Positions 9,144 to 13,217 of a DNA stretch of 32,000 nucleotides are shown here, in pieces. The position numbers and the translations under genes are program-made. Each line of letters starts with the position of its first letter. Position 1 is the first letter of the stretch. The DNA comes from Candidatus Electrothrix yaqonensis. GTDB taxonomy: Bacteria; Desulfobacterota; Desulfobulbia; Desulfobulbales; Desulfobulbaceae. Below the pieces are notes generated by a model, which was given only the letters and a program-made list of their open reading frames with translations, was not told the DNA's origin and made no database searches. The stretch covers positions 1,920,001 through 1,952,000 of the forward strand of contig CP178758.1 in the NCBI GenBank assembly GCA_047651235.1, given 5' to 3'.

Positions 9144-12100
9144 ATGATATGTAGGCACTTATCCTTTCTTTTAACTGCAGCAGCGGTCTTGTTCTCGCTG
9201 ACAGCGGCCGGTGTTCAAGCCGCTGAAGACAGCTGTAATATAGATATGGAGGAGATCCGGGTGTATAACCGGGGGACCGATCCTCCCGGGGAGATGATAC
9301 GACCGTACATCACTCTCCGCAACATGGGGGAGAAGGAGATTGATCTGTCACGCCTGACAATTCGATATTACTACACGGATGACGGCGGCACCCAGCCTTA
9401 TACAGCCACTAACGACATTTTTCAGATCAACAGAAAGTCTGCTGATCTGTCTAAAATGTCAGTCAATATTCAGAAATCTTTTATAGACGTTACGTTTGAT
9501 CCCTCGCTTCCGGTAATAGACAAGGGGAAGGACGGCGGAAGACTGAAGATTCAGTATCACGTTCAGACTGCCAAACAGGAAGTCTGGGATAAAACTAACG
9601 ATTACTCGTTCCGGGAAGGCGGATGGGAGGAGGATGGTAAAATTGTCGTGTACTGCGACGGCAATAAAGTGTCCGGCAATGAACCGCCTTCGGACGGCAC
9701 TCCCTCATGCGAGGACGGTGTCAAAAACGGTGATGAAACCGGGATCGACTGCGGCGGCTTGTGCCCGGAATGTGAACCGTCAACATGCGGAGACGGCATC
9801 CTGAACGGCGATGAGACCGGGATCGACTGCGGCGGGTCATGTTCTGCCGCATGTCAGGCCGCCTGCGACGATGGCATTCAGAATGGCGATGAAACCGGGA
9901 TCGACTGCGGCGGATCATGCCCTGCTGTATGTCAGGCCGCCTGCGATGATGGTATTTTAAACGGCGATGAAACAGATATCGACTGCGGCGGCTCGTGTCC
10001 GGCATGCCCTTCCTGCGATGACGGCGTTCAGAACGGCGATGAAACCGGGATCGATTGCGGCGGTTTATGTGAGGAATGTCCCCCTTCCTGCGACGACGGC
10101 GTACAGAATGGTAAAGAGACCGGTATCGACTGCGGCGGGTCATGCCCTGCCTGCCCGACATGTAAAGACGGGATAAAAAACGGCGATGAGACCGGCGTTG
10201 ACTGCGGCGGCTCATGTCCGGAATGTAGACCTTCATGCGAGGACGGTGTTCAGAACGGCGATGAGACCGGTGTTGACTGCGGCGGTTCATGTCCGGAATG
10301 TAAACCTTCATGCGAGGACGGCGTCAAAAACGGCGATGAGACCGGTGTTGACTGCGGCGGCTCATGTCCGGAATGTAAACCTTCCTGTGATGACGGAATT
10401 CAGAACGGCGATGAGACCAGTATCGACTGCGGCGGTTCCTGTCCTGCCTGCCCGACATGTAAAGACGGGGTGCAGAACGGTGACGAGACCGGGATCGACT
10501 GCGGCGGTTCATGCCCTGCCTGCCCGACATGTAAAGACGGGATAAAAAACGGCGACGAGACCGGTATCGACTGCGGCGGCTCATGTCCGGCCTGCCCGAC
10601 ATGTAAGGACGGCATCAAGAACGGTGACGAGACCGGTGTTGACTGTGGTGGTTCCTGTCCGGCCTGCCCGACATGTAAAGACGGGGTGCAGAACGGCGAT
10701 GAGGCGGGTATCGATTGCGGCGGTTCCTGTCCTGCCTGCCCGACATGCAAAGACGGCATCAAGAACGGTGATGAAACCGGTGTTGACTGTGGCGGTTCCT
10801 GCCCGGCATGTGCATCTTGTTCCGACGGCGTGAAGAACGGTGACGAGACCGGCGTGGACTGCGGCGGCTCATGTCCGGCCTGCCCGACATGTAAAGACGG
10901 GATAAAGAACGGCGACGAGACCGGCATAGACTGCGGCGGCTCATGCCCAGCTTGCCCGACATGTAAAGACGGGGTGCAGAACGGCGATGAAACCGGTGTT
11001 GATTGCGGCGGCTCATGTCCCACCTGCCCGACATGTTCCGACGGAGTGCAGAACGGCGATGAAACCGGTGTTGACTGCGGCGGATCCTGTCCGGCATGTC
11101 CCACATGCGAGGACGGCGTCAAGAACGGCGACGAGACCGGCGTTGACTGCGGCGGCTCATGCCCCACCGACTGCGGCGGCGATTCGTCCTGTTCGGACGG
11201 GGTGCAGAATGGCGACGAGACTGGAGTGGACTGCGGCGGATCCTGTCCGGCATGTCCCACATGCGAGGACGGCATAAAGAACGGCGATGAAACTGATGTT
11301 GACTGCGGCGGTTCGTGCCCTGCCTGCGCCTCCTGTTCCGACGGCGTGAAGAACGGCGATGAAACCGGTGTTGACTGCGGCGGATCCTGTCCGGCATGTC
11401 CCACATGCGAGGACGGCGTCAAGAACGGCGATGAAACCGACGTTGACTGCGGCGGCTCATGCCCTGCCTGCGCCTCCTGTTCCGACGGCGTGAAGAACGG
11501 CGATGAGACGGATGTTGACTGTGGCGGTTCCTGTCCGGCATGTCCCACATGCGAGGACGGCCTCAAGAACGGTGATGAGACCGGCGTTGACTGCGGCGGT
11601 TCCTGCCCGGCATGCGCCTCCTGTTCCGACGGCGTGAAGAACGGTGACGAGACCGGCGTTGACTGCGGTGGTTCCTGCCCGGCATGCGCATCCTGTTCCG
11701 ACGGAGTCAAGAACGGAGATGAAACCGGCGTTGACTGCGGCGGTTCATGCCCGGCCTGCGCATCCTGCTCCGACGGCGTGAAGAACGGTGACGAGACCGG
11801 CGTGGACTGCGGCGGTTCCTGCCCGGCATGCGCCTCCTGTTCCGACGGAGTAAAGAACGGTGATGAAACCGGCGTGGACTGCGGCGGTTCCTGCCCGGCA
11901 TGCTTGGGATTGGCTGGCGCAATCTTCATCGATAATCAGCTGACTGCAACCTGCTCCGGAAATTACAGTATTGCCAACCGGAACTGCTCCGGTAATGACG
12001 GGAATGCATATACGAACATCACCGAGGCAATCAAGACGCTTACTGACGGTGCCGGAGGGACAGTCGCCATCAGAGGCGGGACATATACCCAGGAAGTGCG

Positions 12101-13217
12101 CATCAAACGAAGCGGATCTGCGGATTCATACTTGGTCATTATGGCCTATCCGGGCGAGACGCCGATCATTGACGGCGATGGTAGATTTCCCACAACCTCC
12201 TGGCATGAAGGACTGATCGCGGCCGACTCCAGAAGCTATATTCATCTGCACGGCCTGACCATCAGAAATTCCAAGTATCTGGGGATTCATTTCTATAAAT
12301 GCCATCACATAAAGATAACCAACTGTACGGTTCATAATACCCAGGACGGCGGCATCATCTTCAATGGAGGCGCTAACGGCGGAACAGATGTTCTTGTGGA
12401 CAACTGCGAGGTTCATCACACCAATCAGGAAGGTTCTCGTGCCATGCATGAAGCTGTCACCATTCGGGCCATTGACGGGTTCGAGGTGAAAAATGTCCAT
12501 GTTCACGACTGCGAAGAGGAAGGAATTGATGCCAAGTACCAGTCTACCAACGGTTCCATCCATCATTGCCGATCATATAACAACGGGACTGGAATATATA
12601 TCGACAAGGCCAACACCATCGATGTCTACAACAATACCCTTTACAACAACGGTCCTGGCGTCCTGCTGGGCATAGAAGAGGAAGGAGATACACCGGAACC
12701 GTATAAGCTGTTTCAGGTCAAGGTGTACAATAATCTGATCTACAATAATGACACCGGCATCGCCTTCTGGGTGGAAGATCCGATCGTCAGCCAGGCACGA
12801 TATCACGACGTGATGATTGTCAACAATCTGATCTACAAGAACAACCTTCCGAGAACGACCTGGAGAAAACTGGGGATGAAAATTCTCCCCCTGGACTCGA
12901 ACTTCGGCGACAATATCGTTGTCCGTAACAATATCTTCTGGCAGAACGAAGACGATGCGATTTCTTTTTACAATGCAGATCCGTCAGCCTTCATAATCGA
13001 TCATAATCTGTTTGATACGGAGGATACCGGTGTGCACGGCAGCGACGCAGTAACAACTTCGGATGTTCTGTTTGTCGATGAAACGGCAGGAGATTTTCGC
13101 CTGCAGAGCGGCTCGCCTGCTAGGGGACAGGGTTCTTCTGAAGGTGCACCGGCTGTGGACTTTGACGGAACATCGAGAAGTGCACCGCACGACATCGGCC
13201 CGTTTGTCGCGCCTTAA
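9144..13217 (+). CDS. secreted multidomain protein: Sec signal peptide, CBM3-like carbohydrate-binding module, 30 x 24-aa four-Cys repeats, right-handed parallel beta-helix (pectate-lyase-fold) domain
   Basis: GAGG SD 8 nt upstream. Signal peptide [21 protein letters not shown]3 pattern: [17 protein letters not shown] (compare AIDLSKLTLRYYYTVDG in clostridial CBM3a), [19 protein letters not shown]. Repeats span residues 189-920. PbH1-type beta-helix rungs: [84 protein letters not shown]. Capping motif [10 protein letters not shown]...DIGPF. Confidence 0.9.
9708..11903 (+). repeat. in-frame tandem array: 30 units, basic period 72 bp (24 aa), consensus C-x-D-G-(V/I)-(K/Q)-N-G-D-E-T-G-(V/I)-D-C-G-G-S-C-P-A-C-(P/A)-(T/S)
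   Basis: Units counted by hand from the translation. Unit starts fall at residues 189, 215, 241, 267, 291, 316, 340, 365, 390 and 415. From 415 they recur every 24 aa up to residue 655, and again from 683 to 899; the irregular 28-aa unit 20 accounts for the 655-to-683 step. tgt/tgc codons checked at 9708, 10161, 10386, 11034, 11622 and 11901. Confidence 0.95.

Follow-up and report, generated by a model that had tools for sequence, protein, structure and literature searches.

A predicted exported protein of the cable bacterium Candidatus Electrothrix yaqonensis YB6 with a CBM3-family module, a stalk of 30 four-cysteine units and a beta-helix domain

The window analysed in this study is a stretch of 32,000 nucleotides of the genome of Candidatus Electrothrix yaqonensis YB6, a cable bacterium of the Desulfobulbaceae (contig CP178758.1, positions 1,920,001 to 1,952,000), and all coordinates given below refer to this window. 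At 9144..13217 on the forward strand it contains a single intact open reading frame (ORF) of 1357 codons, the stop codon of which occupies 13215..13217 (+). Reading of the sequence placed a Shine-Dalgarno-like GAGG at 9133..9136 (+), 8 nt 5' of the ATG, and a Sec-type signal peptide at 9144..9221 (+; aa 1-26). These are followed on the same strand by a module of carbohydrate-binding module (CBM) family 3 (9258..9689, aa ~39-182; Pfam CBM_3 and phmmer against the PDB), an array of 30 tandem four-cysteine units (9708..11903, aa 189-920; unit reading and Tandem Repeats Finder), and a right-handed parallel beta-helix domain of an uncharacterised Pel9A-like family (11904..13214, aa 921-1357; Pfam, AlphaFold2 and Foldseek). 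This is the domain order that the first-pass annotation had proposed from the sequence, and it was borne out by ORF reading, Pfam, PDB alignments and the AlphaFold2 model; the two profiles suggested there as a check, CBM_3 and Beta_helix, both matched in Pfam (E 5e-10 and E 1e-19). The architecture had also been called unusual, which holds for the combination of its parts and the copy number of the repeat, but not for the repeat motif, which is widespread. A modular secreted protein resembling carbohydrate-active enzymes (CAZymes) and carrying a CBM is an already known kind. What is novel here is a linker between CBM3 and putative enzyme that is made of 30 copies of an unannotated mini-domain without known structure, in an architecture confined to its lineage and in a cable-bacterium host.

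The signal peptide shows n-, h- and c-regions ([26 protein letters not shown]|AEDS, read from the sequence), with predicted cleavage at VQA|AE. Inspection of the N-terminus revealed neither a twin-arginine (Tat) motif nor a lipobox: the start MICRHLSF... contains one Arg only and the S/T-R-R-x-F-L-K motif is absent, so that it does not qualify as a Tat signal. At the other end of the protein, a segment at 13095..13205 (+; aa 1318-1354) matched the NCBIfam model choice-of-anchor Q (NF041518) with a score lying exactly on the cut-off (25.0 bits vs 25). No sorting signal follows this segment, the protein stopping 3 residues later, and Pfam gave no match of the YB6 protein to Por_Secre_tail (PF18962), the T9SS sorting domain (T9SS, type IX secretion system).

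The 30 units of the array cover 732 residues, in agreement with the earlier count. Of these units, 21 are 24 aa long, 4 are 25 aa, 3 are 26 aa and 1 is 28 aa long, while the last is a 22-aa core without linker. Their consensus is C-x-D-G-[VI]-x-N-G-D-E-T-G-[VI]-D-C-G-G-S-C-P-A-C, followed by a linker of 2-6 aa, and every unit conforms to a signature of four Cys plus D3, N7, E10, D14 and GG. Exactly four Cys are present in 30 out of 30 units; the array therefore supplies 120 of the 130 Cys of the whole protein, and not 121 as the first-pass annotation had stated. The additional Cys reported there for unit 2 proved to be a displacement of the fourth Cys (C-x3-C-x3-C), which also occurs in unit 3. 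The extra DCGG reported for unit 20 does exist as a partial duplication, but it leaves the number of Cys at four. Gly, Cys and Asp account for 20%, 16% and 14% of the array, which has a net charge of -114, or about -3.8 per unit, and is devoid of Phe, Trp, Tyr and Met.

Tandem Repeats Finder reported periods of 72 and 144 nt. In the 3' half of the array the best matches between units were found at lags of 2 or 4 units, in agreement with the 144-nt period, and these sequence patterns point to growth of the array via duplication of two-unit blocks. Comparison of codon pairs between units gave 3353 synonymous and 1559 non-synonymous differences. This ratio of about 2:1 indicates purifying selection on the array peptide. 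The array is far beyond chance: numerous synonymous codon changes have left its invariant columns intact. Across 9721..11929, both strands contain long ORFs that are antisense or off-frame, one example being a repetitive ORF of 509 aa at 10400..11929 (-). They were rejected as genes and are explained as shadows of the repeat periodicity and of GC-rich codons, by which gene callers could be misled.

The first-pass annotation had raised the worry that the array or its copy number might be an assembly artefact of a repetitive region. We regard this as very improbable. The short-read Logan contigs of run SRR31704081 do end at position 10186 and restart at 11874, inside the array, and the homologue contigs of strain AR4 and of a Joint Genome Institute (JGI) metagenome are likewise cut at the array. 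The interior 1.7 kb, roughly units 8-29, is thus supported by the Nanopore assembly alone, and an exact look-up did not find the protein in the protein collection. On the other hand, the long-read support for the repeat number that had been asked for already exists in the closed 3.74-Mb genome, which was assembled from Nanopore R10.4.1 reads with Flye and polished with Racon and Pilon (PMC12093952). The Logan contigs agree with it without a single mismatch over 4136-10186 and 11874-16148, confirming aa 1-348 and aa 911-1357, and the frame is open through all 30 units. At the DNA level the units share a mean identity of 78% and a maximum of 97%, none being identical, and the longest exact repeat is 82 nt. 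Moreover, arrays of 27-39 units are present in unrelated genomes. The closed genome, the exact Illumina edges and the divergence of the units largely answer the worry, with the interior resting on Nanopore reads.

The repeat could not be assigned to any named family in the first reading, and this was confirmed. Pfam and NCBIfam gave no match even at E<=10, and searches of the PDB with phmmer and with profiles, for short and long forms of the repeat, returned no significant match; the hits to rhinovirus VP1, the RNF4 RING, LIM and nicastrin were dismissed as chance matches. Pfam likewise left the repeats of two Bacteroidota proteins, P0016 and P0002, without any match. Full-text literature searches with the motif strings, with cable bacteria and cysteine-rich, and with T9SS and cysteine-rich repeat yielded nothing relevant. 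Yet more than 3,385 proteins matched the whole YB6 protein through the repeat alone. A profile of 4 units, searched against 1.84 billion cluster representatives (clusters at 50% identity), retrieved 6,826 representatives at E<=1e-3, of which 3,138 passed E<=1e-10 and 600 passed E<=1e-30.

Most carriers of the repeat belong to the Bacteroidota; others are of myxococcal, woesearchaeal, rotifer or protist origin. A T9SS sorting domain was present in 89 of the best 120 repeat matches. In these T9SS proteins the array separates the N-terminal enzyme from the C-terminal anchor and is often interleaved with FN3 domains. Among the attached enzymes are proteases of the reprolysin-like M12B and M43 types, metallophosphatases, GH26 and a subtilase. 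On the basis of these domain arrangements the repeat appears to serve mostly as a spacer in Bacteroidota T9SS surface enzymes. Conservation of the unit was derived from a hidden Markov model built from the YB6 window units alone, with which 1,966 distinct units in 238 proteins were aligned. C1, E10, D14, C15, G16, C19 and C22 are conserved in ~100% of these units, G17 in 98%, D3 in 95% and N7 in 93%. At least 30 units occur in only 2 of the 238 proteins. The period varies between 22 and 32 aa across the family; the linker after C22 is variable, and C22 and the C1 that follows it are separated by 0 to about 10 residues. Together with the occurrence of a lone unit in Electrothrix ATG1, this variable period indicates that the units are autonomous beads.

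The myxococcal, woesearchaeal, rotifer and protist proteins mostly contain a 48-52-aa long form that combines the unit with a second four-Cys half, G-x2-C-x4-D-C-x-S-G-x-C-x2-G-x-C. This second half, which the YB6 protein lacks, is the only region matched by TIGR04289 (eight-cysteine-cluster), at 18 bits versus a cut-off of 50; the sub-threshold match recurs in P0006, P0053, P0074, P0087 and others. The long-form proteins P0074 and P0087 end in CBM3 modules, hence the pairing of CBM3 and repeat seems to have arisen more than once. In P0061, a protist protein from a eukaryotic transcriptome, each Cys unit is preceded by a conserved segment GC-x-D/N-x2-AHN(F/Y)-x-P-x-A, another unannotated composite repeat, and Notch LNR-like modules are found elsewhere in the same protein.

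Judged from its composition, the YB6 array offers no possibility for a hydrophobic core. Two disulfides, a bound cation or both would therefore have to hold each bead together, and the invariant D/N/E/D set of oxygen donors suggests Ca2+ for this role. These residue patterns suggest that the units are disulfide-stabilised and probably Ca2+-stabilised beads. In such a model each 22-residue bead would contain two intramolecular disulfides and probably one Ca2+ at D3/N7/E10/D14, and the 70-kDa array would form a stiff, protease-resistant and strongly acidic rod. Its length, estimated by analogy with other two-disulfide mini-modules, would be tens of nm, and a rigid stalk is the reading that we favour.

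The CBM3 module had been described as clear, and its family membership is well supported by sequence. Pfam CBM_3 (PF00942) matched aa 41-105 with E 5e-10 (35.8-40.1 bits vs a cut-off of 22.4), and phmmer against the PDB aligned ~145 residues (query 12-161) with 6d5b (2e-14), 4jo5 (7e-11) and the CipA CBM3a 1nbc (4e-10). The motifs RYYYT-x-DG and NDYSF, which we take to form the structural Ca2+ site of CipA CBM3a, align with those of solved CBM3s. What is not kept is the cellulose-binding strip. The planar strip of CBM3a/b presumably consists of D56, H57, Y67, R112 and W118 in CipA numbering. In the HMMER alignments, which are uncertain here, its equivalents in YB6 are D, I and L, while R112 and W118 fall into deletions or opposite Gln, with a Trp 3 residues away. 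A word-indexed database search for relatives of the CBM3 part produced one match of 29% identity, and a metagenome scan with this part found nothing. By its sequence the module is best regarded as a member of the CBM3 family and an outlier within it.

For the C-terminal domain, Pfam reported Beta_helix and NosD at aa ~1025-1174 with E 1e-19 to 1e-20 and a weak match to DUF5123 near the C-terminus. AlphaFold2, supplied with a 44-sequence alignment, predicted a right-handed parallel beta-helix with a predicted local distance difference test (pLDDT) of 95.5 and a predicted template modelling score (pTM) of 0.94. All Foldseek matches of this model in the PDB were carbohydrate-active enzymes (E 2e-10 to 1e-5, identity 11-16%, TM 0.45-0.66): GH136 lacto-N-biosidases, the PL9 enzyme Pel9A (1ru4), GH120 XylC, AlgE/AlgG epimerases, PL6, GH28, rhamnogalacturonan lyase and RbmB. 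The Foldseek probability was 1.00 for Pel9A, GH136, GH120, PL6 and GH28. A profile of the family matched XylC (6e-15), an alginate lyase (1e-12) and Pel9A (1e-8), in each case over the N-terminal cap and the first coils only; its alignment to 1ru4 comprises positions 34-170 plus a weak stretch at 305-360. The tag PF22842 (Pel9A-like_beta_helix) was found precomputed for homologues, including the 94%-identical fragment P0121, whereas our local Pfam scan returned it for no protein. Thus the pectate-lyase-like fold named by the first-pass annotation is supported structurally by AlphaFold2 and Foldseek, but no glycoside hydrolase (GH) or polysaccharide lyase (PL) family and no mechanism can be assigned.

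Invariant or near-invariant polar residues of the beta-helix family are E1103, E1126, D1129, K1131, D1154 and E1178. According to the alignment and the AlphaFold2 model, conserved polar residues are spaced ~24 residues apart, which equals one coil, and lie at the ends of stacked strands. Rows of charged residues are typical of active sites in beta-helix proteins. From the model we infer that E1103, E1126, D1129, K1131, D1154 and E1178 form a candidate active site, and the domain is probably an enzyme that cuts sugar polymers. A second large beta-helix protein is encoded 5 kb downstream at 18206..21250 (-) by a 1014-aa ORF that begins with TTG, its true start being uncertain, and contains Disaggr_assoc, two or three PKD and DUF1565/Beta_helix domains. 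It was rejected as a close paralogue because of its 24% identity to the YB6 C-terminal domain. The two exported beta-helix proteins represent a local concentration in the window.

The nearest homologue of the beta-helix domain is the fragment P0121, which is 94% identical and comes from a JGI contig of 1.5 kb; its ORF is open to the contig edge just past the array junction. Beta-helix proteins of Ca. Electrothrix AR4 and ATG1 share 56-61% identity with the YB6 domain. In the ATG1 protein (P0125) a signal peptide precedes two PPC domains, after which come a single Cys unit and the beta-helix, and one AR4 copy has two PPC domains and zero units. A second AR4 contig (QYKT01000435.1) starts inside the repeat: its frame 3 reads ...[21 protein letters not shown], and within positions 1..130 a frameshift at six consecutive G connects the repeat frame to the beta-helix ORF. 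Repeat frame and frameshift together imply that at least 2 units precede this AR4 beta-helix. The annotated start of AR4 P0122 is an artefact, caused either by a sequencing error or by a pseudogene. A scan of contigs from genomes with the beta-helix domain gave only matches of 25-30% identity, in Baekduia and Aquificaceae. From these sequence comparisons, the beta-helix is the conserved core and the Cys unit an old companion, CBM3 and the expansion to 30 units being specific to the YB6 lineage. The array would have expanded from one or two units, as in other Electrothrix homologues, by duplication of one- and two-unit blocks. A total of 801 YB6 genes are reported to be absent from other cable-bacterium genomes (PMC12093952), and the gene described here is likely among them.

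Several homologues are found in a context of glycan metabolism. P0126 (43% identity) belongs to a Wzx/Wzy exopolysaccharide (EPS) cluster in which three GT4s occur along with a flippase and a Wzy polymerase, P0146 adjoins GH106 and a GH63/37-like hydrolase, and the Electrothrix AR4 homologue adjoins a PMT_2 glycosyltransferase. Homologues in these neighbourhoods share 37-43% identity; for the AR4 and ATG1 proteins the range is 56-61%, as noted above. The EPS, glycosidase and PMT_2 neighbourhoods support a glycan role of the beta-helix family.

Taken together, we propose that the YB6 protein is a Sec-exported, glycan-anchored and glycan-active enzyme with a stalk in the form of a bead rod, and assign to this interpretation a probability of roughly 0.55. 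CBM3 would anchor the protein to an insoluble glycan, most plausibly a polysaccharide of the cell's own envelope or sheath and not plant cellulose. The rod would keep the C-terminal beta-helix at a distance from the site of attachment and thereby set its reach, and the beta-helix would cleave or modify an acidic or neutral polysaccharide via its stacked row of conserved Glu, Asp and Lys. A polysaccharide-rich layer has been described beneath the conductive fibres of cable bacteria (PMC11976967), and YB6 forms abundant, 219-nm-thick sheaths of undefined nanofibres (PMC12093952). For the biology of this layer and of the sheaths, a protein that combines a glycan anchor with a long spacer and a probable glycan enzyme is a concrete, testable candidate.

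A number of observations weigh against this proposal. AlphaFold2 applied to a block of 4 units (35-row alignment), as the first-pass annotation had suggested for a few units, gave no usable fold (pLDDT 38), and disulfide pairing, Ca2+ binding and rigidity of the repeat are all properties that we infer. The planar cellulose-binding strip of CBM3a is not conserved in the HMMER alignments, and no characterised enzyme could be aligned with the catalytic region of the beta-helix, a domain that might do no more than bind. Directly around the YB6 gene lie genes for IspDF (XOF32209), a RACo-type ASKHA protein (XOF32211), LptF/G and a methyltransferase, all unrelated to glycan metabolism. Finally, no route across the outer membrane is evident, and the protein may stay in the periplasm.

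If the beta-helix does not act as an enzyme, it could bind glycan together with CBM3 in a non-catalytic adhesin or matrix protein, the Cys rod of which cross-links or scaffolds the sheath in a way similar to the Cys-rich glycoconjugates of Leptothrix. We consider this possible but rather unlikely. It would suit the thick YB6 sheaths with their undefined nanofibres (PMC12093952) and the C-terminal choice-of-anchor match, which is typical of surface proteins; many beta-helix proteins are adhesins, and the PPC domains of other Electrothrix homologues are typical accessory or binding domains. However, every structural neighbour of the beta-helix is an enzyme, active sites typically show the kind of invariant charged row (E, E, D, K, D, E) that the family preserves, and stand-alone homologues of ~460 aa in EPS/GH neighbourhoods look like processing enzymes.

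A metal-thiolate stalk is a still less probable explanation of the Cys units. In this case the Cys4 set of a unit, or C-x3-C-x2-C-x2-C across two units, would coordinate a metal (Zn, Ni or Fe) or an Fe-S-like (iron-sulfur) centre, and, with the same low probability, the ~30 sites would function as a periplasmic or extracellular metal buffer or as a redox chain tied to the nickel-sulfur conduction machinery. The CPxC-type spacing (CPACPTC) resembles metal knuckles and a reversed ferredoxin motif, and the failure of AlphaFold2 on the repeat block would suit a cofactor-dependent fold. In addition, the cable bacterium uses a Ni-bis(dithiolene) (NiBiD) cofactor, and its habitat is sulfidic sediment, in which disulfides may lack stability (PMC12093952). 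Several features nevertheless argue against such a function. A pre-assembled cluster is not exportable by a Sec-type, non-Tat signal, and the repeat unit is abundant in T9SS surface proteases of aerobic Bacteroidota and in secreted proteins of eukaryotes. With a distance from C22 to the following C1 that varies from 0 to about 10 residues, a fixed inter-unit Cys4 site is unlikely, altered Cys spacing is tolerated in units 2, 3 and 20, the invariant D/N/E/D set suits a hard cation such as Ca2+, and PDB profile matches to RING and LIM zinc domains were insignificant (E 0.05-0.8). It is highly doubtful that the 30 evenly spaced Cys4 sites, instead of being oxidised to disulfides, carry Ni, Fe or Zn or undergo redox cycling, the stalk then forming a thiolate-metal or redox chain of tens of nm between the cell and its glycan layer or sheath. 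If true, such a chain could store nickel for the NiBiD fibres or offer an additional route for electrons, and the unannotated family as a whole, with its ~7,000 members, would represent a new type of extracellular module for metal binding. In a milder and likewise novel version, the protein would build or trim the unusual extracellular sheath of YB6.

Further features of the window concern its transcription signals and other genes. Promoter and terminator scans performed no better than on shuffled sequence, and an Rfam search of the window returned no match. The protein record of the gene itself in NCBI is presumably XOF32210, between XOF32209 and XOF32211. For the RACo-type ASKHA gene at 13292..14989 (-), the ORF from the first ATG comprises 565 aa versus 535 aa in XOF32211, the two starts differing by 30 residues. 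The 1.4 kb between the LptF/G gene and the next ORF (~16300..17700) has a GC content of 0.40 and no ORF above about 117 aa; Rfam finds nothing in this region, which may represent a gene in decay, regulatory DNA or an RNA for which no model exists. An uncommon fusion is encoded at 27435..29198 (-), where an aldehyde-dehydrogenase-family protein carries an N-terminal cyclic-nucleotide-binding domain; the gene adjoins that of a dCache/PAS hybrid histidine kinase at 24813..27416 (+). The region 662..6466 (-) includes two tandem AIM24-family genes, an M48 peptidase gene, a split DUF2207 gene, whose N- and C-terminal parts are separate ORFs, and a weak sulfotransferase-like gene.

The mini-domain family, to which bacteria, archaea and eukaryotes contribute at least 6,826 clusters, is unnamed in curated libraries and has no solved structure. 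Since the repeat builds the stalks of many surface enzymes, one solved unit would annotate thousands of proteins. LDLa, the cbEGF modules of fibrillin, TSP3, Notch LNR, the disintegrin-like Ca2+ site of ADAM proteins and the Myxococcus repeat TIGR02232 can be compared with the unit by analogy only. With these modules it shares its tiny size, the lack of a hydrophobic core, an even number of Cys, a cluster of Asp, Asn and Glu, and rod-like tandem arrays, and in function the array would resemble the rod-forming cbEGF, LDLa and TSP3 types. It differs from LDLa, EGF, TSP3, Notch LNR, disintegrin and TIGR02232 in the number and spacing of Cys, and profile similarity is absent. The pattern C-x-[DN]-G-x-x-[EN]-x-x-E...D-C-G is reminiscent of how disintegrin-like domains presumably begin, and reprolysin-like proteases accompany the repeat. 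Membership in the disintegrins or the Myxococcus repeats, as the motif resemblance might suggest, was rejected for want of statistical support.

Right-handed beta-helix CAZymes such as Pel9A, GH136 LnbX, GH120 XylC, PL6, GH28, AlgE/AlgG and RbmB have their fold in common with the YB6 domain. Their catalytic residues cannot be aligned with it, and a lyase, a hydrolase and an epimerase are all possible. This holds for the catalytic Lys and the Ca2+-binding Asp residues of PL9 too; the YB6 family has an invariant Lys (K1131) and acidic residues, but these could not be equated with those of PL9. In the order of signal peptide, CBM, linker and catalytic domain, the YB6 protein corresponds to cellulases of Clostridium and Caldicellulosiruptor, to the CipA scaffoldin, and to CBM-bearing PL9 and PL3 pectate lyases. 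Modular CBM3 CAZymes use a flexible Pro/Thr-rich linker, whereas YB6 has 732 residues of four-Cys beads. Moreover, the beta-helix of YB6 falls into no characterised GH or PL family, the CBM3a strip is not kept, and the host is a sulfide-oxidising Desulfobulbaceae filament and not a degrader of plant biomass. The repeat itself is shared with secreted proteins of Myxococcota, Woesearchaeota and eukaryotes and with the T9SS cargo of Bacteroidota (M12B/M43 metalloproteases, phosphatases, subtilases), in which the same signature C-x-D-G-x-x-N-G-x-E-T-x-[VI]-D-C-G-G-x-C-x-x-C occurs in tandem with a period of 24-28 aa. The myxococcal, archaeal and eukaryotic proteins mostly have the long form with its second four-Cys half, in contrast to the short form of YB6. 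Bacteroidota T9SS cargo usually contains about 10 units arranged as enzyme, array and anchor, whereas the YB6 protein, which has no T9SS domain, carries 30 units in the order of binding module, stalk and putative enzyme.

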